A stretch of 64,000 nucleotides of DNA, from assembly GCA_945870865.1 (NCBI GenBank), contig CAMBTO010000001.1:79487-143486 (forward strand), written 5' to 3'. The position numbers and the translations under genes were made by a program. Below the pieces are notes generated by a model. The model was not told the origin of the DNA, did no database searches, and was given only the letters and a program-made list of their open reading frames with translations. Positions 2,772-47,172 of the stretch are shown here, one piece after another. Origin of the DNA: Klebsiella pneumoniae. GTDB lineage: Bacteria; Pseudomonadota; Gammaproteobacteria; Eutrophobiales; Eutrophobiaceae. The stretch's first letter is position 1, and the number at the start of each line of letters is the position of its first letter.

Positions 2772-2963
2772 AAGTGTATTTGTCGTGTTTGTTATCAGTT
2801 TTTTTAGAATGACAAGATAATACGATTCAATCCCGTCCGGATCCAGTCAGTTACGAACTTGTATTAGATCAGGGTTCATTCGCCATTTTTACAGGTCTTA
2901 CCGCCAGCCCCCGTATACCAAAAGGTAGATCCCACCACCCCAGTTTAACTTGTGACTAACAGG

Positions 2964-9450: not shown

Positions 9451-9482
9451 GAATATCTACCGATTTGGGGCATCCTGTCCGG

Positions 9483-10139
9483 ATGATGACCACACTGCGT
9501 AAATATCTGATCGCCGGCCTTTTGGTCTGGGTACCGCTGGCGGCAACAGTGGTCATTATCAAGCTGCTCATCGACATGATGGACATGATCCTGCTGCTGT
9601 TCCCCGAGCAGTATCATCCGGACAAGGTCTGGGGTTTTACCCTGCCCGGCACCGGTCTGTTGCTGGCGCTACTTATCCTGCTGGTCACCGGGTTTCTCGC
9701 GGCCAACCTGATAGGCCGCCGACTCGTGCATCTGTGGGAACACGTGCTCGGGCGGATCCCACTGGTGCGCAACATCTATAATGCCTTCAAGCAGATAACC
9801 CGTACTGTACTCGCCTCGGACAACAAGTCGTTTCGCAAGGTGGTACTGATCGAGTTCCCCACGCCCGGCCTGTGGAGTGTGTGTTTTCTGACGAATGAAG
9901 GTATCAATCTCGATTCAAAGGCGCTACCGGCCGATATGTGCTCGGTGTTTGTGCCGACCACGCCGATACCGACGACTGGCTTTAATATCATCCTGCCGAA
10001 GGACAAGGTCATTGAGCTCGATATCACCATTGAAGAGGCGTTTCGCATGATCATGTCGATGGGAGTGGTCATGCCGGATCGGCAGATCCGCGAGATATTG
10101 GCCGCCGCGACGGTTGCGAAATCAGCGCCCGCCTCGTAA
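9483..10139 (+). CDS. DUF502-family membrane protein
   Basis: MTTLRKYLIAGLLVWVPLAATVVIIKLL...GRIPLVRNIYNAFKQI: a conserved DUF502 architecture, commonly found between fmdB and aspS in gamma-proteobacteria. Confidence 0.8.
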   Translation: MMTTLRKYLIAGLLVWVPLAATVVIIKLLIDMMDMILLLFPEQYHPDKVWGFTLPGTGLLLALLILLVTGFLAANLIGRRLVHLWEHVLGRIPLVRNIYNAFKQITRTVLASDNKSFRKVVLIEFPTPGLWSVCFLTNEGINLDSKALPADMCSVFVPTTPIPTTGFNIILPKDKVIELDITIEEAFRMIMSMGVVMPDRQIREILAAATVAKSAPAS

Positions 10140-27600: not shown

Positions 27601-27783
27601 TGCCCCGGGATAGACGACAAACACACTGACAACAGGAAAGTCGACATCGGGCAATTCGCGGACTTCCACCAGGTTCATCGCCGCCAGTCCTGCCAACGCA
27701 ATCAGCAGGTTTGCCACCATCACCAGTACAGGACGACGTATACTCAGGCCGGGCAAGTCATTGATATCAAATGACATGATCAA
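24673..27783 (-). CDS. RND-family efflux transporter permease (AcrB/HAE-like)
   Basis: 1036 aa with 12-TM RND topology and two large periplasmic loops; the N-terminus MIMSFDI...FIRRPVLV... matches the AcrB family. Confidence 0.9.
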   Translation of the reverse strand: MIMSFDINDLPGLSIRRPVLVMVANLLIALAGLAAMNLVEVRELPDVDFPVVSVFVVYPGASPETIDTEVTSVIEGAVARVSGVKNISSSSEENVSRIRIEFQPGSDLDYAASDVREAVSRVQRRLPDRVEEINIIKADSDSQPIMNLSVYSDTLIEEDITRILEKDIMPELISIEGVADISLFGERNRVLRVVVDPLRLTSLGLSVSDVVDTLQRAPFDVPAGSFRSESQELVVRADASVYTAEQVANIIIRDNTRVGDVARVYFGPEDAQRYTRLNGRSVIAMGVIRKAKSNAIEISNNVRNTVDQLNERFDNIELVITNDDAEFIRSSVKEVLFTMLITVLIVIATIWMFMGSLRATLIPSIAIPISLIGTIAGIWLFGFSINILTLFALVLATGLVVDDAIVVLENILRRRKQHVGGRAAAVLGTRQVFFAVVTTTVVLISVFVPIAFLPGTAGRLFREFGFVLALAVAISSFVSLTLVPAMASRLPDTDSEKRPSGLMGRLGNLLIQLYTRSLGKTLDHPFIAILVALGLAAGAFSVYKQLDQELVPTEDRGMFRVNMSAPDGVGIGYMDQQTRKVEQVLAPMVDSGEVRSIFTIVGTYDPNRGSIIVPLADWSERDRSQQQIMRSLDSAFEQISGLQISVSGSNSLGMGRGGGNRLSVALIGNEYAEIYDAAKKFAATVEQTSDDLSSPEISYEPTQPQLLLEIDRRRASDLGINLDNLAETLRVMIDGDEVVDLNIQDESVPILLEASTEEINDPSDLVNLYVDTESGGLLPLSSVVKLREEGIASELPREAQRRAIEVDFDITPGFPLQTAIEQLNVIASDVLPANVSMILLGDAATLEETSRDVIITYIIALLVVFLVLCAQFEGFTSAIVVMLLVPFGIAAAIFALFLTGTSLNIYSQIGLVMLIGLMAKNGVLVVEFADQLRDRGYDIRKAIETGAVIRLRPVTMTILCTVLGGLPLILESGAGAEAAASIGWVVFGGLGMAAMFTLYLTPVLYLLLARFSKARAAETEQLVSELEYAESMKSKP

Positions 27784-28862
27784 CTCTCGATTTTTACGGT
27801 CCGGTCCATCTGTTCGTATTTCCCCTGCTCACGCATGGTATGTTCAACCTTGATACCTTCATACATACGCTGTACACCCTCAACCACTACCAGATCGGCT
27901 TCCGTCAGGCTCGCATCGACGAGTACCTGGCCCTGCTGACGCTGGATGATACGCACCGGGACCCGGCTGGCCTGGCCTGCACTGACCCGCCACACGTGTG
28001 AACCATCGGCACCCCACTGCACCGCTATTTCGGGCAGGACCGGAAACGACTTGCCCCGGATATCCAGACGGACCCTGAAACTCATGCCCGGCCTGAGTCT
28101 GTCGTCCTGGTTATCCACGCTCGCTCGCACAGTGAACGTTCTTGTCAGCGGATCGATACGGCTGCCGATATCTACGACCACACCCTCGGCCGCGGTGACT
28201 TCATCATTCCATGGATTGATGGCTATCTGTTCACCTGCCTTCAGCGTACCTACCATGATCTCAGGCACTTCAAAACTGATCAGCAACGCATCACGGTTAT
28301 CTATCGTAGTAATTACCGTTGACTGATCGACACGGTCACCCGGGTCAATCTCGGCTATGCCGACGTAGCCGGCAAATGGCGCTCGAATTATCCTGTCATC
28401 CAGTGCAATCTGTGCCTGCTGCAGTTCTACCTCGGCTGTTTCAAGTGCGGTCCCGGCCGCATCCAGCACAGTCGGTAATATTGCACCACTGCCTGCGGTA
28501 CGCTCATATCGCTCATATAATTTTTTGGCGTCTTCACGCCTTATTCGGGCGAGTTCGATCGCAAGCTTCTCATTACGTGCATCAAGCTGGACCAGCACGT
28601 CTCCCTTGCTGACACTCAGTCCCGGCCCGAAATTCACGGCAACCACTTCGCCAGACGCAAGCGGAGTAATAGTGACAGACTGGATGGCACGCGAGGTTCC
28701 GACCGCCTCTATACGGGTCAACTCATCGGAAAATCTGACCTGCTCAACTAGGACGGCAACTGTTTTATCAGCACCCCGTCCCCGGGCAGTCTCTGATGGT
28801 TCATTCGTGCATCCGGCCAGGACAAACAAGCCTACGAGGGCGATACCTGCAACTCTTAACAT
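27780..28862 (-). CDS. RND efflux periplasmic adaptor (membrane fusion protein), lipoprotein
   Basis: Lipobox LAGC; HlyD/MFP coiled-coil hairpin and beta-barrel domains; overlaps the permease start by 4 bp. The probable start is the Met at 28862. No outer-membrane factor gene is adjacent. Confidence 0.85.
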   Translation of the reverse strand: MLRVAGIALVGLFVLAGCTNEPSETARGRGADKTVAVLVEQVRFSDELTRIEAVGTSRAIQSVTITPLASGEVVAVNFGPGLSVSKGDVLVQLDARNEKLAIELARIRREDAKKLYERYERTAGSGAILPTVLDAAGTALETAEVELQQAQIALDDRIIRAPFAGYVGIAEIDPGDRVDQSTVITTIDNRDALLISFEVPEIMVGTLKAGEQIAINPWNDEVTAAEGVVVDIGSRIDPLTRTFTVRASVDNQDDRLRPGMSFRVRLDIRGKSFPVLPEIAVQWGADGSHVWRVSAGQASRVPVRIIQRQQGQVLVDASLTEADLVVVEGVQRMYEGIKVEHTMREQGKYEQMDRTVKIES

Positions 28863-29305
28863 ATTTTCTATCTTCTGTAGTAGTACTGTGAGATGGCATA
28901 TCATCAACACGCCTGACGACATGCATGCATATTAACCGCTGCAGGCCACAGGAAATATCGAATACGACCCTGACAGACCAATATTCACAATAAATCCACT
29001 ATTGCAGTTATTTATGTCACATAATATGCAGAATTAAATCGTAATGTACCCTGCGTGAAATTGCTGTGAAATTAGTGGCAGAGTAACAACGCGTTTATGA
29101 AACATACTAAATACTTTTTGACCCGACCCAGGCCTGACCACAGAAACCGGCATTAACTTCTATACTGGCCTGCACCAAAATAGATCCCCTGCCCTTAACG
29201 TATAACTTCCACGAGCGGATAGCACTGTTTCTGGGCAGCGTAGCCGTGCCTCTGCCCTGATTTATATACTGGCCACCACCTGCCGCTGATTTCCGTGCTG
29301 TTGTT

Positions 29306-29761
29306 TTGTTTCTCATGTCGAGGGTGCCGAACCGCTTTTTGTTATCAAAATTGAAGATTCTGAATGAATTCCGTCATATACAGCCCGGATGGAAACAAGT
29401 GTTGATAGCCATTGCCCTGAAAATGATCGGCCGGATCGGCACGTTTCTGGAATTGTTCCTGATACTCATCGTGCTTGATATCGATCCAGACTTTGTCGAT
29501 GTCGTGCTGGTCGAAGCGCTAGTTATGGTCAACGTCTGCCTGTTTTTCTTTATCCTACTGGAACTGGGTGTAAATGAGGCCGGCATCCTGGCCGATTTTT
29601 CCATCGCCGGACTTGCCGCAGCAAGTGGCATAGCGTTTGGTCTGCTGCGTCGAGCAAGAATGATTACCTATACGCTGACAGGCCTGTGCGTTTATGTGCT
29701 GGGTACGACTACCCGGTTTGGCAGCCAACCTTACCGTAATCAGGACCAGTCTTTACCCTGA
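29306..29761 (+). CDS. hypothetical small membrane protein (weak PsiE-like pattern)
   Basis: 151-aa ORF with hydrophobic segments and a faint resemblance to PsiE (ELVE.LVV..L.F..I.L). There is no strong RBS and it is uncertain. Confidence 0.3.
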   Translation: MFLMSRVPNRFLLSKLKILNEFRHIQPGWKQVLIAIALKMIGRIGTFLELFLILIVLDIDPDFVDVVLVEALVMVNVCLFFFILLELGVNEAGILADFSIAGLAAASGIAFGLLRRARMITYTLTGLCVYVLGTTTRFGSQPYRNQDQSLP

Positions 29762-29765
29762 AGGG

Positions 29766-30950
29766 TCAGCGGGACAGACCGACCAGCTCGGTAAATGCAC
29801 TGCACAGTCTCTCTATCTGTTCCGGTGTATGTGCTGCACTGAGGCTGCAACGTATCAACGGTCTCCCGTCCGGTGCGGCCGGAGGGAAGATCAGGTTCAC
29901 GTAAACCCCGCGTTCCATCAGCGCACTCCACAAGGTCACGGCCTGTGGTGGCGTATCCAGTTGGGCGGCTATTACCGGGCCGGCCACTGGCCCGACCCGA
30001 TATCCCTGTTCTTTCAAACAGGAATATAGCCGGTTTGCATTTATCCAGAGGCGTTCACGTAAATGGTTACCGTCACGCAGCAGTATCAATGCCGCCCGTG
30101 CAGAGGCAATATTCGATGGCGACGGGGATGCGGTAAAAATATAGGGCCGACTCAGATAACGCATCAAATCGAGTTGTTCATGGTTACTGACGCAATAGCC
30201 GCCGATACTGCCGAGACTCTTGCTGAATGTGCCGGTGATAAAGTCGACCTGATCGGTCACGCCGGTCTCTTCAACCAGACCCTGCCCGGTCCTGCCGAGC
30301 ACACCCAGTGAGTGCGCTTCATCTATCAGCATGTAACTTCCATGTGCCTTTGTGACATTGACCATTTCCGGCAACGGCGCCTTGTCACCGAGCATGCTGT
30401 AAATACCTTCAACAATGACCAGTGTTGACCGTGCTCGATCACCCAGACGGGCGAGCCTCTTGTCGAGGTCAGCGGCATCGTTGTGGCGGAACCGGATCAC
30501 TTCGGCGCCACTCAAACGACACCCGTCATAGATGCTGGCATGGCAGTGTGCATCTATCATTAATACATCACCCTGCCCTGCCAATCCGGAAATCGTGCCC
30601 AGGTTGCCCTGATACCCGGTTGAAAAGACCACGGCATGTTTGCAGTTGTAAAATTCTGCAAACTCCCGTTCCAGTGCGCGGTGGCCTTCATAATTTCCAT
30701 TGGCCATACGGGAGCCGGTCGTGCCGGTACCTTCTTCATCAATCGCCTTGTGTGCAGCAGCGATACATTCCGGCGCAAACGTCAGTCCGAGATAATTGTT
30801 CGTACCTGCCAGTAATACGCGTTTGCCAGCTATACTGGCCTCGGTTGCTGAATACATTTTTTCTATCGGTGTACCGAAGATCGATGGACGGATCTCAAGC
30901 AACGCCTTGCGGTCATCACCAAACACGGAAAATTTATCAAACAGATCCAT
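29766..30950 (-). CDS. spt: serine palmitoyltransferase-like alpha-oxoamine synthase (PLP-dependent)
   Basis: About 50% identity along its length to Sphingomonas SPT as I recall it (GTNNYLG, GSRM.NG, VVFSTGY.NLG, EVIRFRHND..DLDKRL, EGIYSMLGD.APL, IDEAHS.G, TFSKS PLP-lysine motif, RPYIFTAS, ERLW, GVYVN, IRCSLSAAHTPEQI). Confidence 0.85.
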   Translation of the reverse strand: MDLFDKFSVFGDDRKALLEIRPSIFGTPIEKMYSATEASIAGKRVLLAGTNNYLGLTFAPECIAAAHKAIDEEGTGTTGSRMANGNYEGHRALEREFAEFYNCKHAVVFSTGYQGNLGTISGLAGQGDVLMIDAHCHASIYDGCRLSGAEVIRFRHNDAADLDKRLARLGDRARSTLVIVEGIYSMLGDKAPLPEMVNVTKAHGSYMLIDEAHSLGVLGRTGQGLVEETGVTDQVDFITGTFSKSLGSIGGYCVSNHEQLDLMRYLSRPYIFTASPSPSNIASARAALILLRDGNHLRERLWINANRLYSCLKEQGYRVGPVAGPVIAAQLDTPPQAVTLWSALMERGVYVNLIFPPAAPDGRPLIRCSLSAAHTPEQIERLCSAFTELVGLSR

Positions 30951-31201
30951 TATTTTTCTGACTCTATACGTTCAATCATACGGGCAAGATCACTGACCAG
31001 TTGCACTTCGGCCATCAGGTTAAGTGGAATGGAGATATCAAACTCATCCTCGATTTCCATAATCAAATCCAGAATCTTCACTGAATCGAGCGCAAACTGA
31101 TCCACCAGATTTGTATCGGGTCGGATCTCGGCCCCTGACCCGGCAATGCGCTCGAGATGTTTGCTTATCCTTTGCAGTGTATTTTCATAATTGTCTGTCA
31201 T
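30950..31201 (-). CDS. dedicated acyl carrier protein
   Basis: 83 aa with the phosphopantetheine attachment context LDSV within a helical acidic protein. It is translationally coupled to the downstream SPT gene, sharing one nucleotide between stop and start. Confidence 0.8.
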   Translation of the reverse strand: MTDNYENTLQRISKHLERIAGSGAEIRPDTNLVDQFALDSVKILDLIMEIEDEFDISIPLNLMAEVQLVSDLARMIERIESEK

Positions 31202-31211
31202 ATCAATCCCG

Positions 31212-32138
31212 TCACTGTAGATTCAAAGGCAATACTGCCTCGTGTAACGCATCCTGTAATTGTCTCTTTGGCCGCCAGCCTGTCGCTCGCGTCAGCTTGT
31301 CTGAATCGCACACCCAGTCGGTATGCTGTAATTCACGTACCTTGCCTGGCGTCAACATCGGTGAATAACGGAACAAACGCGCCAGCGCAAGGTTCGCTCT
31401 GGCGACTGCGCTGATGATGCTGGCAGGGACAGGCAGACTGTGTACCGGTCGTGTCCAGACCTGACTTGCAATTTGTTTTACGGCGTCGTGATCATATCCC
31501 CCGGGCGTCCCATCATCAAGCTCATAGATTCCGGCAATCGGTTCGTCTGCATTCAACCAGGACAGAATTGCCTCGACCAGATCATTAACATACAGCAGGC
31601 CGAACCTTGAGGATTTCGCTCCGGTCAGTGGTAACAAGCCAAGGCGTGTCGCACGAAATATCGGTGCCATCTCGCGATCGCCTGGACCATAAACGGCAGT
31701 TGGTCGAAATATGGTCCACTGGTTCATTCCAGCGTGTCTTATCAGGTATTGTTCTGCCTGGAACTTGCTATCTGCGTACCATGACAGTTGTGGTTCGCGC
31801 GCTGCCAGCGAGGACATCAGCAGAAACCGTGCATGAGGAACCCTGCTTGATACCGAATCAAGCAGATTGGCGGTACCATCAAGATTGGTCTTCAGGAAGT
31901 CTGCTGATGAACTGCCACGGACGCGGCCGGCGCAGTGAATTACGTAATCTGTTTCAGCCACAAGTTGATACAGCGCATCTTTATCTTCAAGTGTGCCGGT
32001 AATCCAGTGCAGGTTTTTACTGTCGGCTTGTGGCTTTCGCGTTAGCGCACGGACTGCCCAGCCCGCGGAGGTCAATTTGTGTATCAGGTTTTTGCCGATG
32101 AAACCGGTGGCGCCGGTGACCGCCACGCGTCCTGACAT
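31212..32138 (-). CDS. NAD(P)-dependent epimerase/dehydratase-family reductase (candidate 3-ketosphinganine / ceramide reductase)
   Basis: Rossmann motif VAVTGATGFIGKNL and the extended-SDR catalytic Y..xK context (YADSK). Confidence 0.8.
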   Translation of the reverse strand: MSGRVAVTGATGFIGKNLIHKLTSAGWAVRALTRKPQADSKNLHWITGTLEDKDALYQLVAETDYVIHCAGRVRGSSSADFLKTNLDGTANLLDSVSSRVPHARFLLMSSLAAREPQLSWYADSKFQAEQYLIRHAGMNQWTIFRPTAVYGPGDREMAPIFRATRLGLLPLTGAKSSRFGLLYVNDLVEAILSWLNADEPIAGIYELDDGTPGGYDHDAVKQIASQVWTRPVHSLPVPASIISAVARANLALARLFRYSPMLTPGKVRELQHTDWVCDSDKLTRATGWRPKRQLQDALHEAVLPLNLQ

Positions 32139-32141
32139 GTA

Positions 32142-33899
32142 TCAGTAACGGGCGTCCGGCTGGGCTGATTGCTGGCTGCTGGGGAATCCGGTCCTTTTCA
32201 TGAAGCCCTGACATGCGGCTGCGCGTGACAGTTTTCCTGAAGAGGTGCGCGGAAGTGTATGTGGAGGCACTAGCTCAACCAGACAATGTACGCCGAATGC
32301 AGTGTATACCAGTCTCTGTAATCGGCTCATCAGGGCCTGACGTTCCTGAACAGCTGTCAGGCGGCATTCTATGACAAGCACAACAGTTGAAACATCGTTT
32401 GCATCAACAACAGCAAACGCCGAGGTCTCGCGCATCCTGATCTCCGGCTGTTGCTCCGCGATTTCTTCAATGTCCTGGGCGCGAATATTACGGCCATTGA
32501 TTATGATAATGTCCTTGTGACGACCGGTCAGATACAGATTGCCCTCAGATACAAAACCGAGATCACCGGTGTCCATCCAGTTGTCAGGCTTCATCACCCG
32601 GCTGGTTGTCTCCGGGTCATTGATATACCCGGACATGATACTGGGCCCTTTCAGCATGACGCGACCCACACGCAGATCCGGTAAAGCCTGGCCCTGACCA
32701 TCGACAATCGAAACAAAGTGACCCGGTAAGGGTCTGCCACAATTGACAAATTCGTTATGTTTTCTACCCTCTGCCTGTACACGCACAGCAACCCCACGTT
32801 CAGCCAGCGCCTCTGTATCTACCTTCATCACGTCCAGGCCTGTTCCCACCCTAGAGAAGGTCACTGCGAGAGAGGCTTCAGCAAGTCCGTAACATGGCAG
32901 GAAAGCCAACGGGTTGAATCCGACTGATTCAAATTTACTGGCGAAATTTTTCAGTACATCAGGCCGGATCATCTCGGCACCAATACCAGCAGCACGCCAG
33001 CTGCTCAGATCCAGACCTTCCAGATCCGCGCTACGCACCCTGAGGGCACACAGTTGCAGACCAAAAGGCGGACAAAATGCGATCGTGCAACGGTTACGAC
33101 TGATTAATCTGAGCCACTGGATCGGACGAACAGCGAAATCGCGGGTACGCAGGAAATCTACTGACAACTGCGAGACCAGTGGGGACAGGACCAGGCCAAT
33201 CAATCCCATATCATGGTAAAACGGCAACCAGGATGCACAGCGATCACTCGGGTATATGGCAAGCCCGTCACGGACGATACCTTGCAGGTTACTCATGATG
33301 GCCAATTCGGTGATGATGACGCCCTGCGGTGCGCGGGTACTACCGGAGGTAAACTGCAGATAGGCTATCTCGTCCCGCCGACTTTTCTGCATCGGCAGAT
33401 CCGATTCGGGAAGCTGCGCCAGCTGTCCCGGCGTACCGGTCCAGCGCACACTGCCTACCTCCCGGCTGGCCTCTTCAAGAAAAGATATAAAGTCCTTGTT
33501 TGCAATTGCCATGCTGGCATTGCTAATGTTGAGCATGGCACCTAACTGCCGAACATATATGTCGTGGCTACCCAGATTGACAGGTATAGGCATGGCAAAT
33601 GGAACCAGACCCGCATAGCGACAGGCAAAAAACAGGATAATAAACTCGGGGGATGTGTCTGCAATAATCGCGATAGTTTCTCCGCGTTTCAGGCCGAGAC
33701 CCAGCAAACGTCTTGCTGTAGAAATCGCGTCCTGGCGCAGTTGCTTGTAGGTAAGCACTTGCCTGAGCACGCCCCGTGCATCATAGAAGTTGTAGCCGGT
33801 CGACCCTGTTGCAGCATAGTCGAGCGCATCCGTCAGTGTCTCGAAGTCCGCCAGTCGCTGTGACAAAAGGTTCAGCGTTCCGGTTGGTTCAAGAACCAC
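32142..33899 (-). CDS. fatty acyl-AMP ligase / acyl-ACP synthetase (adenylate-forming enzyme)
   Basis: AMP-binding core motifs (FTSGSTRAPQGV, ...YGLAE..., TGD.G); 585 aa; first gene of a tight four-gene operon with 3-10 bp gaps. Confidence 0.85.
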   Translation of the reverse strand: MVLEPTGTLNLLSQRLADFETLTDALDYAATGSTGYNFYDARGVLRQVLTYKQLRQDAISTARRLLGLGLKRGETIAIIADTSPEFIILFFACRYAGLVPFAMPIPVNLGSHDIYVRQLGAMLNISNASMAIANKDFISFLEEASREVGSVRWTGTPGQLAQLPESDLPMQKSRRDEIAYLQFTSGSTRAPQGVIITELAIMSNLQGIVRDGLAIYPSDRCASWLPFYHDMGLIGLVLSPLVSQLSVDFLRTRDFAVRPIQWLRLISRNRCTIAFCPPFGLQLCALRVRSADLEGLDLSSWRAAGIGAEMIRPDVLKNFASKFESVGFNPLAFLPCYGLAEASLAVTFSRVGTGLDVMKVDTEALAERGVAVRVQAEGRKHNEFVNCGRPLPGHFVSIVDGQGQALPDLRVGRVMLKGPSIMSGYINDPETTSRVMKPDNWMDTGDLGFVSEGNLYLTGRHKDIIIINGRNIRAQDIEEIAEQQPEIRMRETSAFAVVDANDVSTVVLVIECRLTAVQERQALMSRLQRLVYTAFGVHCLVELVPPHTLPRTSSGKLSRAAACQGFMKRTGFPSSQQSAQPDARY

Positions 33900-34247: not shown

Positions 34248-35492
34248 GTGTTATCCCCCCTGTTTTCGCGGGTTGATATGAATAATTATGTTACTCTTGA
34301 CGTCATTTTTCATCCTCTGGACTGCATCTTGAATATGGGTCTGACAGCTAGAAAACAAACAACCTCGACGTCAGTAGACGTCAGGCCAGTGCTGACGGGA
34401 AGAGACTGGCGGACTTTCATCAATTTACCCTGGTATATCTATCAGGACGACGCCAACTGGGTACCACCACTACGACTTGAACGTCGCCTGCATTTTTCGA
34501 GGATGAACCCATACTTCAGAAATGCTGAGTGGCAAGCCTGGATAGCCTACAAGGACAACAGGCCGGTCGGCAGGATCAGCGCCCAGGTTGATAGGGTTAA
34601 CCGTCAATATCATGGAGAACATACCGGTCATTTTGGTCTGCTAGAGGGCATTAATGACCCTGCCGTGTTCGCCGCCTTGACCCAAACCAGTGAAGAATGG
34701 CTGTCTCAGCGTCAGACTCACCATATTTCCGGCCCATTCAGCTTTTCCATTAACCAGGAGTGCGGGGTGCTGGTTGACGGTTTTGATACTCCGCCGGTCA
34801 TACTTATGCCCCACTCGCGCCAGTGGTACGGGCTGATGCTGGAACAACAGGGTTACACACCGGCAATGGACATGCTCGCCTACTGGATTGAAACCGGATT
34901 TGAAGCATCTCGCGTTATGAAAACACTGGTGGCAAGGTTTGACAAACGTATACATCTGCGTCATTTGCGCCGCAAACAGTACTCAGAGGAGATGGAAATC
35001 CTGCGTGATATTTTTAACGACGCCTGGTCAGGTAACTGGGGATTTATCCCGTTCAGCAAGGAGGAGTTTGCTGATCTTGGTAACAGTCTGCGATTTTTTA
35101 TTGCGGACGACTTTGTGCAGATAGCTGAACTCGATGGCAATCCGGTCGCGTTTGTCGTGGTACTGCCCAACCTTAACGAGATGCTCACCCGGCTGGACGG
35201 CAGCTTGTTTCCATTGGGATGGTACCGCTTGTACCGCGCGATGAGACAGAAAAGCTTCCGTACCGGCCGCGTACCGCTGATGGGAGTACGTAAACAGTAC
35301 CAGAACAGCTCGCTGGGGCTGACCCTGGCACTGATGGTCTGTAATGCTGCACGGGTCTGTGCACGGGCGACAGGAATTGAAGCGGTTGAAATGTCGTGGA
35401 TACTCGAAAACAACCGGGGCATGCGCAGCATACTCGATAATATTGGCAGCAAGGAGTACAAACGTTTCCGCATTTATGAAAAGTCTCTGTAA
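34248..35492 (+). CDS. GNAT-fold-like acyltransferase of unknown specificity; candidate bacterial ceramide synthase
   Basis: 414-aa ORF, divergently transcribed from the SPT operon. Its C-terminal half has acyl-CoA N-acyltransferase-like segments (FVVVLPNLNEM...RQKSFRTGRVPLMGV...). The assignment is by context, not by a recognised motif. Confidence 0.5.
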   Translation: MLSPLFSRVDMNNYVTLDVIFHPLDCILNMGLTARKQTTSTSVDVRPVLTGRDWRTFINLPWYIYQDDANWVPPLRLERRLHFSRMNPYFRNAEWQAWIAYKDNRPVGRISAQVDRVNRQYHGEHTGHFGLLEGINDPAVFAALTQTSEEWLSQRQTHHISGPFSFSINQECGVLVDGFDTPPVILMPHSRQWYGLMLEQQGYTPAMDMLAYWIETGFEASRVMKTLVARFDKRIHLRHLRRKQYSEEMEILRDIFNDAWSGNWGFIPFSKEEFADLGNSLRFFIADDFVQIAELDGNPVAFVVVLPNLNEMLTRLDGSLFPLGWYRLYRAMRQKSFRTGRVPLMGVRKQYQNSSLGLTLALMVCNAARVCARATGIEAVEMSWILENNRGMRSILDNIGSKEYKRFRIYEKSL

Positions 35493-35570: not shown

Positions 35571-36653
35571 GTGAAAACACTGGGGCGATACATTAGTATA
35601 GAGATCTTCCGACCATTTGTGGTTATCAGCCTGATTCTTGCCGGATTGTTTTCCAGCTTTAATGCCGCGCGTTATCTTGAGACGGCCGTAACAGAATCAC
35701 TGGGAATGTCTCTGATCTTCAAACTGATAATGCTTAAAACCGTCATTGCCATGGAGGTACTGTTTCCGATCGCGTTCTACGCAGCCATTATCGTGGCACT
35801 TGGCCGTATGCATAGGGACCAGGAAATTATCGTAATGAAGTCGGCCGGTATAAATGAAACCTTCCTCATTAAAACTGTTATCACACTGGGTATACCAGTC
35901 GCAATCATGACAGGCATGTTGTCAATGTACGGCAGGCCATTGGCATACGACACTATCTACAGAATGGACAATAACGCCAGTAACGAGCTGGATGTGGATC
36001 GTTACCAGGCAGGACGGTTCTACGGTATCGAAAACAGTGGTCGTATCATCTATATCAACAGCAGAAACAACCGTGACCACATGCTTGAAGGCGTATTTCA
36101 CTACATCCGTCAGGACAACCGTAGTGATATTATCCTTGCCCGACAGGGCTACCAGGTCCGGAAAGGGCAATATCAACCACCGGAACTGCACCTGCTTGAT
36201 GGCAGCCTGTACCGTATCGTTCCTGGCGGCTCACGTGAATCAATAATCCATTTTTCCAGGTTTGTTTTCATTCCGGATGCAGACATAGCGATTGACTATC
36301 AGCGCAAGGCGGCACCAACACTGGACCTCGGGGACTCTGTCGACAGCCGCGACATTGCTGAATTCCAGTGGCGAATCTCCAGACCGTTCGCCACGATGTT
36401 ACTGGCGCTGGTAGCGATACCGCTAAGCCGAACCGCCCCGCGACAGGGCAAGGGAGAAAAGGCGGTCTCTGCTGCTGTAATTTTTGCCCTCTACTACAAC
36501 CTGAGTGGTCTGGCCCAGACCTGGGTCGAGCAGGGTACTGTTGGCAGCGTGCCCGGTGTATGGTGGCTGCATATGAGCATGCTTGTTTTTGTGATATGGG
36601 TACTTGCACCCGGATTTTCCAGAAAACCTGCCGGTGCACATGTACATACTTGA
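35571..36653 (+). CDS. lptF: LPS export ABC transporter permease LptF
   Basis: YjgP/YjgQ family with a GTG start; MKTLGRYISIEIFRPFVVISLILAGLF... and a periplasmic beta-jellyroll between TM3 and TM4. Confidence 0.85.
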   Translation: MKTLGRYISIEIFRPFVVISLILAGLFSSFNAARYLETAVTESLGMSLIFKLIMLKTVIAMEVLFPIAFYAAIIVALGRMHRDQEIIVMKSAGINETFLIKTVITLGIPVAIMTGMLSMYGRPLAYDTIYRMDNNASNELDVDRYQAGRFYGIENSGRIIYINSRNNRDHMLEGVFHYIRQDNRSDIILARQGYQVRKGQYQPPELHLLDGSLYRIVPGGSRESIIHFSRFVFIPDADIAIDYQRKAAPTLDLGDSVDSRDIAEFQWRISRPFATMLLALVAIPLSRTAPRQGKGEKAVSAAVIFALYYNLSGLAQTWVEQGTVGSVPGVWWLHMSMLVFVIWVLAPGFSRKPAGAHVHT

Positions 36654-37704
36654 TCGATATCTGATGAAGCAGGTTGCGCAAGGGATTGTTATCTCTACGC
36701 TGGTATTACTGCCCCTGTTCAGCTTTCTGGATCTGGTCGACCAGCTGGATGATGTGGGCACCGGCTTTTACCGCACCAGTGATGCATTCCTGTATGTTGT
36801 CATGACTCTGCCGCGCAGGTTTATCCAGCTGACCCCGTTTATTGCATTGCTTGGAAATGTGACGGCACTCGGCAGACTTGCGATTAACCATGAGCTGATC
36901 TCCCTGCGTTCAGCCGGATATTCTCCGGTACAGATCAGCATGGCATCTTTGAAGGTGGGACTCGTGCTGCTGGCGCTGATTTTTACACTTGAAATATATA
37001 TTGCGCCCCCGCTGCAACAAAAGGCCATTGCCCATCGTGCGGCGGCGATGGAACAAAGCGCCGAACTTGGAAAAAATCTGGGTATCTGGACCCGGAATGA
37101 CCGGCAGATCCTGCGCATAGGCAATTTGCAGCATGATACCAGACAGGCAAGTGTTGAAATTATCAATCTTGATGAACAGGGAAACATGTCTGAATATTTA
37201 CATGCTGAAGGTTTCGAGATCGCCAGCAATGAAGAATGGATATTGCACCAGGTAACGCGCAAGATATATACTGAGGACAACATCCGGTCGACCACGATGG
37301 ATCGATTGCCCTGGAATACCTTTCTGAATCCCGCCCAGATATCAACACTGACCAAACCACAGGAAAGCCTGTCTCCGGTCGAACTTTTCCGCTATGTCCA
37401 GCATTTACAGTCAACCGGGCAGGAAGTCGATGTATACCAGCTGTCGCTGTGGAAAAAACTGGGCGGACCACTAACGATGCTGGGGATGTTGTTGTTATCG
37501 GTACCGTTCGTGTTTGGTTCGGTTCGTACAGGTTTTGCGAACCGGCTGGTAATGGCGGGCGTTACCGGAATAACCGTCTATCTGCTCGACCAGATCTTTT
37601 CCAACACCGGGCTGATATTGAATCTGAATCCTTCGTTTATCGCGTTGACGCCTGGCATACTTTTGATCTGGATAGCACGGGTCTGGTTACGGCGTGTCCC
37701 CTGA
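36640..37704 (+). CDS. lptG: LPS export ABC transporter permease LptG
   Basis: MYILDRYLMKQVAQGIVISTLVLLPLFSFLDLVDQLDDVG: the canonical LptG N-terminus. It overlaps lptF by 14 bp. Confidence 0.85.
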   Translation: MYILDRYLMKQVAQGIVISTLVLLPLFSFLDLVDQLDDVGTGFYRTSDAFLYVVMTLPRRFIQLTPFIALLGNVTALGRLAINHELISLRSAGYSPVQISMASLKVGLVLLALIFTLEIYIAPPLQQKAIAHRAAAMEQSAELGKNLGIWTRNDRQILRIGNLQHDTRQASVEIINLDEQGNMSEYLHAEGFEIASNEEWILHQVTRKIYTEDNIRSTTMDRLPWNTFLNPAQISTLTKPQESLSPVELFRYVQHLQSTGQEVDVYQLSLWKKLGGPLTMLGMLLLSVPFVFGSVRTGFANRLVMAGVTGITVYLLDQIFSNTGLILNLNPSFIALTPGILLIWIARVWLRRVP

Positions 37705-37736: not shown

Positions 37737-38720
37737 ATGTACATATCAGCTGCTGACAAGTTATACCCACAAAATACGGCCATTTTACTGAACCCGCATG
37801 GCGGCAGGATACGCAAACGCCTGGGTCGCATACGCGAGCTCGCAGCGGCAATACCCGGTGCAATCGTGTGCGAAACAGACAATCTCGCAGACATGAACAG
37901 GACCCTTGATGAGCTGGCAGAACGCGGCGTGGGTCATCTGGTGATCGCCGGTGGTGATGGAACGGTGCAGGCCGTGCTGAACCGCCTGTTCACCGGCAAA
38001 CTCTGGTCCCGCCTGCCACTGGTCAGTATAGTCCCTGGTGGAACAACGAATATGACAGCATCTGATCTTGGTACATCCAGCAACCCTGAAAAGTGTCTGC
38101 AACAACTGGGCAGATGCCTGCAGAACGCAATGGATGTCAGGCTGGTAACGCGATCTGTTTTGAAAATCCGGCAGAATCAACAGCCGGATATTCATGGCAT
38201 GTTTTTCGGTGCCGGTTTGATAGCGCACGGTTCTGCATATTTTCACAAGCATATAAAAAAGTCCGGGCTAACCGGTGAGTCCGGTTCTGCTTTTGTGATG
38301 CTGCGTATGCTGTCAGGACTGCTGACTGGCCGCAATGCAGACGAGCGTGCCCAAATCCGGATCCAGATAACGGATGACACCGGTCACACCAGGGTATGCA
38401 ACTCTATGTTGCTGTTTACCAGCACGCTGGATCGCTTGCTGCTCGGGCTACGTCCGTATTGGGGTGGTGGTAATGGAGCTATCCATACTACCTGCCTGCG
38501 CGAGCATCCTCTCCGGTTGTGGCGATCGTTACTGACCATCGTTTGTGGTCGTGGCAACTCCCTGGACGAAAATAACGGTTATTACAGCAGAAATAACAGT
38601 GCAATTGAGCTGCTTATGGACGCCAGCTTTATTGTTGATGGTGAGTTTTTTGTTTGCGAAAGCAGGCATGGTCCGCTCAGGATTAGCCAGGCTGGCCCGG
38701 TCCGCTTTTTACTCCCCTGA
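37737..38720 (+). CDS. diacylglycerol-kinase-catalytic-domain lipid kinase (YegS / sphingosine-ceramide-kinase-like)
   Basis: DAGK_cat signature HLVIAGGDGTVQAVLNRL and a preceding NP.GG motif (LLNPHGGR). Confidence 0.8.
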   Translation: MYISAADKLYPQNTAILLNPHGGRIRKRLGRIRELAAAIPGAIVCETDNLADMNRTLDELAERGVGHLVIAGGDGTVQAVLNRLFTGKLWSRLPLVSIVPGGTTNMTASDLGTSSNPEKCLQQLGRCLQNAMDVRLVTRSVLKIRQNQQPDIHGMFFGAGLIAHGSAYFHKHIKKSGLTGESGSAFVMLRMLSGLLTGRNADERAQIRIQITDDTGHTRVCNSMLLFTSTLDRLLLGLRPYWGGGNGAIHTTCLREHPLRLWRSLLTIVCGRGNSLDENNGYYSRNNSAIELLMDASFIVDGEFFVCESRHGPLRISQAGPVRFLLP

Positions 38721-38746: not shown

Positions 38747-39706
38747 ATGCCCACTACTGACACCCGGTTACCACTAGGACTGATTAACGCGATTGCCCTC
38801 CAGTGTGAGCGTCCAGCAGGCATTGAAGCCGCGCTGCTTGCAAACAACATCCGGCAACGATTTGGGGATTCACTGCTTGCCGTCATTCTCTATGGTTCCT
38901 GCCTGCGTACGCATCTTTATACCGAGGGTGTGGTTGATTTATATGTGGTCGTTAACAGTTATCAGCAGGCCTACAGCGGTCATACGCTGCGTTATTTGAA
39001 TGCGGCCTTACCTCCGAATGTTTTTTATATCGAGATTAACAACAATGAAACTATCATCCGCGCAAAATACGCTGTCATTTCAGCACGTGACCTGGAGCGG
39101 GGCTGTGGCCAATGGTTCCACTCCTATATCTGGTCACGCTTTGCCCAGCCCGTCGTCCTGTTGTATGTACGCGATCCACTGACGCGTGAGCATATTTATA
39201 AAAATCTGGCCTGCGCGGTATTGACCTTACTCAGCACCACGCTACCTGCGCTCGGACCAGGCAAGGTGGACCATGCTGCAATCTGGCAGAACGGATTGGC
39301 CCTGACCTATGCAGCGGAATTGCGCCCTGAACGCCACACAAGGGCACGTGATATCACAGCGCAAAATCTGGATGACTTTGGCATCCTGATCAGAAAGGCG
39401 GCACCAGCGCTTGTTACACTGATGTTTACTGATGAAGACGACCTTTATGAAAGGCTTAGCGGGCAGACCGAAAGATCGCGGGCGACCAGATTATGGCGGA
39501 TTCGACGCTGGCAAGGATTTTTACTTTCAGTATTACGCTTGTCAAAAGCGGCCTATACCTTTCGTGACTGCGTGGATTATGCCGCCTGGAAGATCGAACG
39601 TCATACGGGTATACGCATCCACGTGACCCCGACCCTGCAACGACACCCTATCCTGTTCGGCTTTAGTGTATTATGGCAACTGATTAAAAGGGACGTACTA
39701 CACTAG
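38747..39706 (+). CDS. Tam41/Mmp37-like CTP-dependent nucleotidyltransferase (phosphatidate cytidylyltransferase-like)
   Basis: NTase-fold G-S...D.Y.VV (ILYGSCLR...DLYVVV), followed by a block VFYIEINNNETIIRAKYAVISARDLERGC..WFHSYIWSRFAQPVVLL. This block parallels the yeast Tam41 region VYFNPF..I....VKYGVVS..LL.D...W..LYLAGRLQKPVKIL as I recall it. Confidence 0.6.
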   Translation: MPTTDTRLPLGLINAIALQCERPAGIEAALLANNIRQRFGDSLLAVILYGSCLRTHLYTEGVVDLYVVVNSYQQAYSGHTLRYLNAALPPNVFYIEINNNETIIRAKYAVISARDLERGCGQWFHSYIWSRFAQPVVLLYVRDPLTREHIYKNLACAVLTLLSTTLPALGPGKVDHAAIWQNGLALTYAAELRPERHTRARDITAQNLDDFGILIRKAAPALVTLMFTDEDDLYERLSGQTERSRATRLWRIRRWQGFLLSVLRLSKAAYTFRDCVDYAAWKIERHTGIRIHVTPTLQRHPILFGFSVLWQLIKRDVLH

Positions 39707-39746: not shown

Positions 39747-40517
39747 ATGTCGGAAACAGAGTTGAAACAATCAGACCTAACACAGCCCCCGCGTCGTAGA
39801 CGCAACCGACCCAGTGTGGCCATCGGCAAGTGGGTACTCCAGCATATCGAACGTGCGTTGATCCGTTATTCCATTGTCGCTGACGTTCCAATATTTGATG
39901 CGCACCAGTTTGCCTGGACAGCCCCGCTGGAAGCAGACTGGAAAAAAGTACGCCAGGAACTTGATATGATCCTGAAAAGCCAGGTCAAACTGCCAAACTT
40001 TCAGGACATTTCAAAAGACCAGACCAACATTACCCAGGATGACCGCTGGAAAACCTTTTTCCTGTACGGCTATGGCTACAAGATGCCGAGCAATTGCGAT
40101 CTGTGTCCGGAGACAACCCGTATTATCGAGTCTGTCCCCGGCATGTTGACCGGTTTTTTTTCGGTACTGGCGCCGGGCAAACACATACCTCCACATCGCG
40201 GGCCCTATAAAGGTCTGTTACGCTGCCATCTTGCCTTGCAGGTACCGGAGCCAGCGGATCAGTGCTGGATTAAGGTAGGTGATATGTCTGCCAACTGGCA
40301 AGAAGGGCACTGTCTAGTATTTGATGATACCTATGTACATCAGGTCCAGAATAATACGGAGGGTACTCGTGTTGTTCTGTTTCTGGATATAATCCGGCCT
40401 ATGCGTTTCCCCGGGTCCTTACTGAACAGGATCGTTATCTGTTTGATACGTATGTCTCCGTTTATACAGGACGCGATCCGCAACCAGCGAGCCTGGGAAT
40501 ACAGGATTGGTACCTGA
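39747..40517 (+). CDS. aspartyl/asparaginyl beta-hydroxylase-family Fe(II)/2-OG dioxygenase (LpxO/OlsC-like lipid acyl-chain 2-hydroxylase candidate)
   Basis: ...LAPGKHIPPHRGPYKGLLRCHLALQVP...CWIKVGD....W.EG.CLVFDD.Y.H.V.N....RVVLFLDI: the conserved AspH-family core. Confidence 0.8.
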   Translation: MSETELKQSDLTQPPRRRRNRPSVAIGKWVLQHIERALIRYSIVADVPIFDAHQFAWTAPLEADWKKVRQELDMILKSQVKLPNFQDISKDQTNITQDDRWKTFFLYGYGYKMPSNCDLCPETTRIIESVPGMLTGFFSVLAPGKHIPPHRGPYKGLLRCHLALQVPEPADQCWIKVGDMSANWQEGHCLVFDDTYVHQVQNNTEGTRVVLFLDIIRPMRFPGSLLNRIVICLIRMSPFIQDAIRNQRAWEYRIGT

Positions 40518-45315: not shown

Positions 45316-45885
45316 TTGTCACGACGCCTGATCCTGTTCCTGATTCTTGCCGTCGCCGCGGTTGGCAGCGGCTGGCTGATGAAAAGGATTAGCGGGACTG
45401 AACCTGTCCCCTCCGTAAGTGACCGGATTGATCCGGATTATTATATGGAAGATTTTACAACAATCTCCATGGATGAAAATGGCCTGCCAGCAAGCAAACT
45501 ATACGCGGTATATATGGAACATAACCCGGCGGATGACACGCTGGAGTTGTATGAGCCGAACCTGGAAGTCTACCGGGGAGAATCAGACCCGCTGAGGATT
45601 ACAGCCGACACGGGCTGGGTGACAAATAATAACGAGGTGATCCTGTTACGCGGCAAGGTACGTATGTGGATCGAAGATGCGGCCGGCCAGGTAACATTGA
45701 ATGTAGATACGACCGAAGTACGGGTATTGTTGCTTGAAGAATATGCAGAGACGGACCAGAATGCGACTATTGTTGCCAAACGAACCACAGTTAAAGGACG
45801 GGGAATCCGGGCACATTTCGATGATAACCGACTGGAAATACTGGATCATGAACAGACTACAATTGCGCCGCCTAATCGGATTTAA
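45316..45885 (+). CDS. lptC: LPS export protein LptC
   Basis: N-terminal TM anchor and a periplasmic beta-jellyroll; sits between kdsC and lptA. Confidence 0.8.
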   Translation: MSRRLILFLILAVAAVGSGWLMKRISGTEPVPSVSDRIDPDYYMEDFTTISMDENGLPASKLYAVYMEHNPADDTLELYEPNLEVYRGESDPLRITADTGWVTNNNEVILLRGKVRMWIEDAAGQVTLNVDTTEVRVLLLEEYAETDQNATIVAKRTTVKGRGIRAHFDDNRLEILDHEQTTIAPPNRI

Positions 45886-46402
45886 CCTTGGCCTGCTAAT
45901 GTGCGTCAGTTCAGCCATGCTGTACGCCTTGTCGGCCGACAAAAATAAGGACATCGAAATTGAATCGAACTCTGCCTATCTCGATGATACAAAAAACGTC
46001 AGCGTCTATACAGGTAACGTAGTTGTCATCCAGGGCAGCATGCGGATCACCGGCGACAAGATGACAATTCTCTATAATGAAAACAATGAGTTGGACAAGA
46101 TTATTATGGAGGGTCAGCCCGCAACATTCAGGCAGATGCCAGATAACAGCATGGTCTACGATGAGGCCGAGGCACTGGTAATGGAATATTATGAAAGTAG
46201 GAGCCTGATCGTTCTGACGGACAAGGCCCGAGTTAAACAGGGTGACCGTCGACTGATAGCCGACCATGTGGAATACGATACCAACCTGAGCCAGGTCCGT
46301 GCCAACAGTAATGAAGCCACTACCAAAACCGATCCGGCGACGGACGCCCGGGTCAAACTGATTATCCCGGCAAGAAAAACAGGCACGGCCACCGGCAACT
46401 GA
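45848..46402 (+). CDS. lptA: LPS transport periplasmic protein LptA
   Basis: Signal peptide MNRLQLRRLIGFNLGLLMCVSSAMLYALSA and an OstA-like N-terminal domain (IESNSAYLDD...VYTGNVVVIQGSMRITGDKM). This start is chosen within the longer ORF-track call and overlaps the lptC 3' end. Confidence 0.8.
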   Translation: MNRLQLRRLIGFNLGLLMCVSSAMLYALSADKNKDIEIESNSAYLDDTKNVSVYTGNVVVIQGSMRITGDKMTILYNENNELDKIIMEGQPATFRQMPDNSMVYDEAEALVMEYYESRSLIVLTDKARVKQGDRRLIADHVEYDTNLSQVRANSNEATTKTDPATDARVKLIIPARKTGTATGN

Positions 46403-46446: not shown

Positions 46447-47172
46447 ATGGGAATACTGTCCGCCAGAAACCTGTCCAAGAAATATCGTCGGCGCGAGGTA
46501 GTTCGTGATGTCAGCCTGACTGTAAACGAAGGCGAGATCGTCGGCCTGCTTGGTCCAAACGGTGCGGGGAAAACCACCAGTTTCCACATGCTGGTCGGAC
46601 TGATACCCTGTGACACCGGCAATATATTGCTCAACGAGCAGGATATAAGTCATTTGCCGATGGATAAACGTGCCCGGCTGGGCGTTGGTTACCTGCCCCA
46701 GGAATCTTCGATCTTCCGTAAACTGTCGGTGGAAGACAATATCATGGCCATTCTTGAAACACGTCCGGATATCAGCACGGAAGACGCCAAGGCCCAGCTT
46801 GAAGAGTTATTGCAGGAGTTTCACATCGTGCACCTGCGGGGTAGCCTCGGCATGAGTTTGTCCGGCGGGGAGCGCAGGCGCGTTGAAATCGCGCGTGCAC
46901 TTGCAGTTAACCCCAAATTCCTGCTGCTGGACGAGCCGTTTGCCGGAATCGACCCGATATCAATCGCCGATATCCAGCGTATCGTCAAATATCTGAGTGA
47001 GCGTGGCCTGGGCATCCTGATTACCGACCATAATGTCCGCGAAACACTGGGATCATGTGATCGGGCCTATATTGTCAATGATGGACGCATAATCGCGGAA
47101 GGGACGCCCGAACAGATTCTCGCCAATGAACACGTCAGGAATATTTACCTCGGCAACCAGTTCAGAATGTAG
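46447..47172 (+). CDS. lptB: LPS export ABC transporter ATPase LptB
   Basis: Walker [10 protein letters not shown], signature [15 protein letters not shown] and Walker [13 protein letters not shown]. Confidence 0.93.

Follow-up and report, generated by a model that had tools for sequence, protein, structure and literature searches.

A sphingolipid-cluster LptF–LptG pair beside lptCAB in an uncultured freshwater relative of the Nitrosomonadaceae

Introduction

Until very recently the route by which sphingolipids reach the outer membrane was unknown. In 2024 LptF2, LptG2 and LptC2, encoded by the sphingolipid locus of Caulobacter, were proposed to be sphingolipid exporters (Geiger laboratory, PLoS Pathog; PMC11324152), and the same study drew a Nitrosomonas eutropha cluster (Neut_1100–1106) that includes LptF and LptG genes. 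Uchendu, Isom and Klein reported in a 2026 preprint (10.64898/2026.04.12.717747) that Caulobacter LptF2 and LptG2 are essential only when the anionic sphingolipid is made, and that they bind the single LptB. In published BLAST comparisons the N. eutropha homologues match Caulobacter LptF2 and LptG2 at 24% (E 1e-09) and 33% (E 6e-15) identity, respectively; alphaproteobacterial LptF2 orthologues match one another at E 1e-37 to 1e-44 (PMC11324152). Here we analyse a 64,000-nt stretch of DNA (contig CAMBTO010000001.1, positions 79,487–143,486; hereafter the window), which carries an lptF–lptG pair at 35571–37704 among genes for sphingolipid synthesis.

A preliminary description of this DNA asked whether the pair was the only lptFG copy of its genome, and suggested that it might be a specialized permease pair that delivers a sphingolipid-like product to the Lpt bridge. 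It further suggested that the Lpt machinery would thereby gain a new substrate class; this has been overtaken, as such a role was already proposed in 2024 (PMC11324152) and gained support in 2026 (10.64898/2026.04.12.717747).

Results

An LptF–LptG pair of the sphingolipid-associated type

The window pair belongs to a specialized, sphingolipid-associated type of LptFG rather than to the ordinary type, a suspicion of the preliminary description that is borne out by genomic context, phylogeny, the range of hidden Markov model (HMM) scores and an altered jellyroll motif. That the span is a genuine lptFG is clear: it extends from the start of lptF to the stop of lptG, and both products match PF03739 over its full length and score above the cutoffs of TIGR04407 and TIGR04408 (Table 1). 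The two genes are adjacent in the order lptF then lptG, as is seen in the LptF/LptG family (PF03739; TIGR04407/TIGR04408). The longest open reading frame (ORF) of lptG opens at TTG 36604; the ATG at 36640 is the more likely start because gene callers picked it on identical public contigs and the exact 354-aa product (MYILDRYL...) is on record, and it gives a 14-nt overlap with the 3' end of lptF. Among solved structures the best relatives of the window LptF are the LptF chains of Pseudomonas, Vibrio, Acinetobacter and enterobacteria, and residues 5–339 align end to end with 5X5Y_F. Both proteins are thus likely, judging from their sequences, to consist of six transmembrane helices and a periplasmic beta-jellyroll. 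In the alignment the coupling-helix glutamate is kept in both (RDQEII and INHELI), its E. coli counterparts being LptF E84 and LptG E88, which we take to be the residues that engage LptB. Retention of these glutamates fits use of the cell's single LptB, as biochemistry has demonstrated for Caulobacter LptF2/G2. No further LptF/LptG-family gene was detected by tblastn in the window.

The nearest LptF proteins outside the window clade are all linked to sphingolipid genes: P0155, P0307 and P0313 fully, as they reside in complete spt-acp-reductase-ligase / cerS-lptF-lptG clusters, and Methylomarinovum P0164 and P0334 partly. When compared with the window LptF, sphingolipid-linked outgroups score up to 252 bits and the E. 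coli island LptF 154–175 bits, while proteins encoded next to pepA score 192 (P0202), 160 (P0286), 123 (P. aeruginosa), 103 (Ralstonia) and 67–87 bits (E. coli). Ralstonia syzygii, which has the classical pepA<->lptF-lptG layout, shares only 25% identity (103 bits) with the window LptF and 24% (89 bits) with its LptG, and its pair is closer to canonical gammaproteobacterial pairs than to that of the window. Indeed pepA adjoins lptFG in E. coli, in two gammaproteobacterial metagenome-assembled genome (MAG) contigs (P0202 and P0286) and in Ralstonia, and neither pepA nor another M17 peptidase gene was found in the window or in any fetched locus of the window clade.

In a neighbour-joining (NJ) tree, a simple distance method, in which LptF and LptG were rooted reciprocally and 200 bootstraps were run, Ralstonia groups with the pairs of E. 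coli, Pseudomonas, P0202 and P0286, and the sphingolipid-linked pairs, including that of the window, fall together. The sphingolipid-linked LptF clade was recovered in 148 of the 200 replicates and the pepA-linked LptG clade in 131. An earlier NJ run had recovered the window clade of Nitrosomonadaceae-like relatives in 199/200 and 192/200 replicates; a larger tree, built from 150 representatives, had a star-like shape and was uninformative. The tree suggests, with moderate support, that the cluster-type pairs of beta- and gammaproteobacteria form one lineage, which also occurs on plasmids and in three quarters of complete E. coli genomes.

The HMM scores follow the same division, as the four pepA-linked LptFs score 367–396 bits against TIGR04407 and the sphingolipid-linked proteins 206–331 bits. 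Identical scores were obtained for the window pair and for the island pair of E. coli (319/308 bits for TIGR04407/TIGR04408). At 13 columns that discriminate the two types, the betaproteobacterial clade of the window is sphingolipid-like in 10 and canonical in 2.

Loss of the canonical jellyroll motif of LptF

Canonical LptF carries the jellyroll motif R212-[YF]-E-G215 followed by [FY]222-[RK]223 (E. coli numbering). The preliminary description had looked to divergence in the jellyroll residues that contact lipid A, and the window LptF does differ in this region: it lacks R212, G215 and the [FY]222-[RK]223 pair and reads L-Y-R-I and E-S at these positions, with leucine in place of R212. All five pepA-linked references and 116 of 117 P0202-like LptFs have Arg212, which none of the 116 members of the window clade has; in these the residue is one of I, M, L, V, S and A. 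Similarly, Gly215 is found in 108/117 P0202-like proteins and in no member of the window clade (0/116). When the 150 nearest representatives are ranked, the motif follows genomic context, being missing from nearly all of the top 50 and common lower down. The window LptG, for its part, has an LLPLF..F.DL..QLDDV motif in its first transmembrane helix (TM1) that is common to the LptGs of the E. coli island and the Pseudomonas plasmid.

R212 is the site of E. coli suppressors that allow lipopolysaccharide (LPS) transport without LptC (PMC4986956, PMC9972910), and it adjoins the LPS-binding site R223/Y230 at the LptF–LptC junction (PMC9972910). Changes at this hand-over site fit a different substrate or direct hand-over to LptA, and also fit the absence of LptC2 from most such clusters. 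The residues thus suggest that sphingolipid-type LptF is altered where LPS would pass from LptF to LptC, in keeping with a different substrate or mode of hand-over, possibly directly to LptA. As a practical rule, canonical LptF can be recognized by pepA linkage and the R-Y-E-G...[FY][RK] motif, and the sphingolipid type by linkage to sphingolipid genes and a hydrophobic residue at 212/215. Two other candidate markers were discarded: K34/K40/K41 of LptG, considered as an LPS-contact marker, is not conserved even among pepA-linked LptGs, and the peptide RDIAEFQW is a weak subfamily signature, being just one form taken by a general xDxAE[LF]QWR motif.

The sphingolipid cluster and its conservation

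The pair is embedded in an operon with the order cerS-lptF-lptG-lipid kinase-Tam41-like-hydroxylase (gaps of 78, -14, 32, 26 and 40 nt), which is divergent from spt-acp-cerR-acyl ligase (Table 1). These genes match the published Caulobacter genes for ceramide and ceramide-phosphoglycerate and their N. eutropha counterparts. The cerS candidate is 55–62% identical to its positional counterpart in the loci of Nitrosomonas and Nitrosospira, and in N. eutropha that counterpart, Neut_1100, has been reported as the orthologue of the bCerS CC_1154 (PMC11324152); the assignment as a putative ceramide synthase draws on this position and on the genes of relatives. Neut_1105, the N. eutropha equivalent of the lipid kinase, is likewise the reported orthologue of CC_1160 (PMC11324152). 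The Tam41-like gene adjoins the kinase in all relatives, and adjoins lptFG even in Methylomarinovum. Compared with other clusters, that of the window is a reduced version, lacking the CDP-alcohol transferase, CobY-like nucleotidyltransferase, metallophosphoesterase and MsbA-like ABC genes that others carry.

The cluster context is deeply conserved. The whole arrangement, including the neighbouring kdsDC-lptC, recurs in uncultured relatives (LptF identity 63–91%); at 48–52%, in Nitrosospira, Nitrosovibrio and Nitrosomonas, it is the core module cerS-(nucleotidyltransferase)-lptF-lptG-kinase-Tam41-like that is kept. Across the 28 closest genome loci, where LptF identity is 44–91%, the cerS-lptF-lptG-kinase-Tam41-like context is kept wherever the locus is long enough. 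Even in gammaproteobacterial MAG loci at 32–34%, five of six are flanked by sphingolipid genes, the sixth contig being too short to tell. Apparent pseudogenization of lptFG in two MFD MAGs (L023 and L036) was rejected as an explanation of their broken frames. In both loci lptG and the kinase are split across frames, as is the Tam41-like gene in L023, and the lptF ORF of L036 is shortened; frameshifts in several neighbouring genes suggest indel errors in the assemblies and not gene decay.

Table 1. Features of the sphingolipid cluster and of the downstream lptCAB genes (window coordinates)
Feature	Coordinates	Strand	Evidence
spt, serine palmitoyltransferase (sphingolipid synthesis step 1)	29766..30950	-	NF047599 SerpalmtaseBetaP equivalog 600.3 bits (cutoff 500); PF00155
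Dedicated acyl carrier protein, acpR-like	30950..31201	-	83-aa PP-binding gene called on identical contigs; DSV/DS motif region in translation
NAD-dependent epimerase/dehydratase-family reductase (short-chain dehydrogenase/reductase, SDR), cerR-like	31212..32138	-	PF01370 E 6e-28; position as CC_1164/Neut_0459 in published clusters
Fatty acyl-AMP ligase / acyl-ACP synthetase, aasR-like	32142..33899	-	NF006624 826 bits (cutoff 600)
Putative ceramide synthase, bCerS-like GNAT (cerS)	34248..35492 (start may be 34278)	+	Weak GNAT match only, PF00583 E 4e-4
lptF, sphingolipid-cluster type	35571..36653	+	360 aa; TIGR04407 318.9 bits (cutoff 230); PF03739 end to end, E 4e-65
lptG, sphingolipid-cluster type	36640..37704	+	354 aa; TIGR04408 308.4 bits (cutoff 240); PF03739 E 1e-62
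DAGK-family lipid kinase, candidate ceramide kinase, CpgB-like	37737..38720	+	PF00781 E 2e-18; downstream of lptG in relatives too
Tam41/Mmp37-like protein, CC_1161-like head-group enzyme	38747..39706	+	PF09139 E 4e-5, just under cutoff
OlsC/LpxO-like lipid acyl hydroxylase	39747..40517	+	PF05118 E 2e-54; NF052565 OlsC 261 bits, below cutoff 450
lptC, only one seen; likely shared partner	45316..45885	+	PF06835 on identical contig L001, mapped with offset 25570
lptA	45848..46402	+	TIGR03002 126.5 bits (cutoff 71.7); PF03968
lptB, ATPase expected to power the pair	46447..47172	+	TIGR04406 391.6 bits (cutoff 240)

Genomic setting

Core genes flank the cluster on both sides. Upstream lie aspS, nadA, yebC, ruvB, tolQ-tolB-pal-cpoB and queE-queC, followed by a resistance-nodulation-division (RND) pump; downstream are mltF, murU, kdsD, kdsC, lptC, lptA, lptB, rpoN, hpf, ptsN, hprK, rapZ and polA. 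The GC content of the cluster (0.51) is close to that of the whole window (0.53), and no integrase or flanking tRNA was found at the cluster, the sole tRNA being 21 kb away. The preliminary description spoke of an island, a term that fits only in part. The sphingolipid gene set is real, but with core flanks, ordinary GC content, no integrase or flanking tRNA, and a layout kept in relatives, it is not a mobile one. The window contains no second lptB, and there is no ABC ATPase gene inside the sphingolipid cluster.

The DNA comes from an uncultured freshwater bacterium related to the Nitrosomonadaceae. At species level the closest genome is a lake MAG (CAMDWI010000003.1, L009), in which LptF is 91% identical and the whole cluster is syntenic; this contig was deposited as 'MAG: Klebsiella pneumoniae isolate MH-09jul19-253', a clear taxonomic mislabel of a freshwater betaproteobacterial MAG.

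Cluster-type pairs as second copies in other genomes

Escherichia coli strains carry a sphingolipid island with its own lptF and lptG between yghS and yghO (E. coli E62, 1278529–1284795, L046). Of 5426 complete E. coli genomes, 4132 have the island pair and all have the pepA-linked pair. As the pepA-linked pair is universal and the island pair is absent from 24%, the latter is a dispensable second copy. RefSeq calls the island permeases plain LptF and LptG, the names that it also gives to the essential pair, and thus annotation alone hides the paralogy. Cluster-type lptF also occurs on plasmids of Pseudomonas (the IncP plasmid pPNP1, with a full cluster), Klebsiella, Rahnella and E. coli.

Further observations on related clusters and on the window

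The 125-kb IncP plasmid pPNP1 of Pseudomonas sp. JS425 (L053) carries genes for an ABC exporter, spt, acp, reductase, ligase, nucleotidyltransferase, lptF and lptG, together with kinase, Tam41-like, metallophosphoesterase, ELM1, hydroxylase and CDP-alcohol transferase genes; an IS5 transposase occupies the place expected for cerS. Some clusters, including those of Methylomarinovum caldicuralii (AP024714.1, L043) and L045, have sulfotransferase and ELM1-like glycosyltransferase genes beside lptFG, a hint that the head groups of the sphingolipids are sulfated or glycosylated. Methylomarinovum has no spt within 10 kb, though Tam41-like and hydroxylase genes are adjacent. The Tam41/Mmp37-like gene, whose family is related to the mitochondrial CDP-diacylglycerol synthase, is the steadiest companion of cluster-type lptFG and is present even without a nearby spt. 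On a 4.3-Mb contig (ERZ19489113, L044) a 110-aa gene (9478–9810) with a weak match to LptD_N, an LptA/LptC-type jellyroll, lies on the opposite strand just upstream of, and divergent from, a sphingolipid-type lptF; it may encode an LptC2-like partner outside Caulobacter.

In the window queC and spt are separated by the RND efflux pump (permease and adaptor, minus strand, 24673–28922). Next to the pump is an ORF of 151 aa (29306–29761), at the position of which an identical contig (L002) has a 148-aa gene matching PF03706 (LPG_synthase_TM). Relatives at 63% identity (L004 and L005) have a full 552-aa LPG_synthase_TM gene at this site and no pump, and thus the pump looks like an insertion that truncated the LPG_synthase_TM gene. 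At 1878–5141 (minus strand) ORFs of 297 and 725 aa without an NCBIfam match adjoin a GT2 glycosyltransferase gene.

Discussion

We favour, by somewhat better than even chances, a reading in which the cluster-type pair would be the LptB2FG-type permeases that export the sphingolipid product of its operon, and a separate canonical pair would be present in the same genome; the substrate, the partners and the second copy are what we infer by analogy with described systems. LptF and LptG are the paired membrane permeases of an ABC lipid extractor of the LptB2FG type, and would dock on the LptB ATPase encoded 9 kb downstream. The pair would pull the anionic (phospho)ceramide product of the cluster from the inner membrane and pass it to the LptC/LptA bridge and LptDE for delivery to the cell surface, and an ordinary pepA-linked lptFG elsewhere in the genome would serve LPS. 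That such a canonical pair exists in the window genome is, in our estimation, reasonably probable. The prediction is made because the genome has 3-deoxy-D-manno-octulosonic acid (Kdo) genes and lptCAB, and LPS is thus presumably made; because every LPS-producing host that could be checked has a canonical pair beside the cluster-type pair; and because the window pair displays no drift toward canonical residues. With pepA-linked LptFs as seeds (P0202, and a profile built from four canonical-like representatives), searches yielded unnamed or gammaproteobacterial matches only, with no Nitrosomonadaceae protein among them, and were uninformative on absence, and in the literature no statement was found on lptFG copy number in Nitrosomonas or other ammonia oxidizers.

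It could be argued that the window pair is an ordinary LPS-exporting LptFG that merely lies beside sphingolipid genes and has no sphingolipid role. Public annotation does call its relatives plain LptF, and both proteins exceed the NCBI LptF and LptG equivalog cutoffs, which, together with the core setting, was initially read as the mark of a core copy. That reading was rejected, however, because the accessory E. coli island and plasmid pairs pass the same cutoffs. The window pair also lacks the pepA linkage seen in E. coli, the two gammaproteobacterial MAG contigs and Ralstonia, groups apart from pepA-linked pairs and is without the near-invariant canonical jellyroll motif. The linkage to cerS, kinase and Tam41-like genes is kept down to 32% identity and across classes, which adjacency by chance would not produce. 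We consider an ordinary pair highly improbable.

More substantial is the possibility that the pepA-linked pair has been lost, and that the cluster-type pair exports both LPS and sphingolipid by way of the one LptB, LptC and LptA whose genes follow shortly downstream. The preliminary description had set against a specialized role the case of a single lptFG pair that is syntenic with relatives; the synteny, at least, was found, in Nitrosomonas, Nitrosospira and uncultured relatives. A sole pair would fit this universal retention of lptFG in syntenic order across Nitrosomonas, Nitrosospira and the window clade, and its site amid core envelope genes near kdsDC-lptCAB. Sphingomonas wittichii, moreover, has a locus-type pair only, and E. 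coli LptF in which R212 is replaced still moves LPS (PMC9972910), so that the missing R212 is compatible with LPS export. On the other hand, a canonical pair is also present in E. coli, in hosts of plasmid-borne clusters and in Caulobacter, and the only reported sole-copy case is without LPS. The excess of sphingolipid-type over canonical residues at the discriminating columns (10 versus 2 of 13), and HMM scores equal to those of the E. coli accessory pair, likewise speak against a sole pair, which we regard as rather unlikely. It is similarly doubtful, and if anything a little more so, that throughout the betaproteobacterial lineage that includes the ammonia oxidizers the cluster pair is the only LptFG, having replaced the canonical pair, with an R212-less LptF carrying both LPS and anionic sphingolipid.

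It should be emphasized that several observations weigh against sphingolipid export alongside a second, canonical pair. The cluster is ancient, vertically conserved and placed amid core envelope genes 6 kb from kdsDC-lptCAB, a setting that would also suit a housekeeping pair. No second pair turned up for the window organism or for any Nitrosomonadaceae genome, in searches that were unable to reveal one; a scan of genomes with exact query peptides matched no genome twice, although it finds near relatives only and so carries no weight. Support for the split between the two types is moderate (74% for sphingolipid-linked LptF, 52% for pepA-linked LptF and 65% for pepA-linked LptG), sphingolipid-linked LptGs formed one clade in only 42 of the 200 replicates, and Ralstonia was the only canonical betaproteobacterial reference in the tree. 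The absence of a flippase-like ABC gene and of several head-group genes from the window cluster leaves the exported lipid uncertain. Finally, as the identity of the beta- and gammaproteobacterial cluster-type pair to Caulobacter LptF2 is only about 24%, function is transferred by analogy and not by clear orthology.

The window pair can be compared with several known systems. With the canonical E. coli pair (b4261/b4262; PDB 6MHU, 6MIT and 5X5Y) it shares PF03739, the F-then-G order and the LptB-coupling glutamates; it differs in being only 24–28% identical, in not being linked to pepA and in having the jellyroll motif replaced. The E. coli yghO-locus pair (E62 CEJ55_RS06560/06565; the UTI89-type sphingolipid operon) is of the same tree lineage, has the same 319/308 scores, has lost the R212/G215 motif, lies by spt-acp-reductase-acyl ligase and shares the LptG TM1 motif. 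Unlike the window pair, to which it is 32–34% identical, it is accessory, has another gene order and has no kinase or Tam41-like gene beside it. Swit_3905/3906 of S. wittichii is also a locus-type pair beside sphingolipid genes, reported to be the sole LptFG of an organism without LPS (10.64898/2026.04.12.717747), whereas LPS is expected in the window organism, which has Kdo genes and lptCAB.

Neut_1102/Neut_1103 of N. eutropha C91 (PMC11324152, Fig. 7 and Table S2D) likewise belong to a betaproteobacterial cluster, which runs cerS-(nucleotidyltransferase)-lptF-lptG-...-kinase-CC_1161-like, and the LptF and LptG of Nitrosomonas MAG loci are 48–50% and 53–55% identical to those of the window. 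In Nitrosomonas and Nitrosospira spt-acp-cerR-ligase is located elsewhere, and an extra nucleotidyltransferase and CDP-alcohol transferase are present; in the window lineage, by contrast, all is contiguous and beside lptCAB. This study extends the described set by a compact, contiguous cluster beside lptCAB in an uncultured freshwater relative of the ammonia oxidizers, by the grouping of beta- and gammaproteobacterial cluster-type pairs as one lineage, and by a jellyroll motif that separates these from canonical LptF.

Like LptF2/LptG2 of Caulobacter crescentus (CCNA_01214/CCNA_01213), the window pair lies within a sphingolipid locus by genes for ceramide synthase and ceramide kinase, here putative, and has no lptB of its own; the role proposed for both is to extract anionic sphingolipid by means of the single LptB of the cell. 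In contrast to the Caulobacter locus, the window cluster contains neither LptC2 nor a flippase-like gene, and the separate canonical pair that Caulobacter is known to have is in the window genome a prediction. If this were the only pair in the lineage, it would be an example from nature of a single Lpt machine that handles two lipid classes; if there are two pairs, the window organism would be an ordinary further example of the Caulobacter model.

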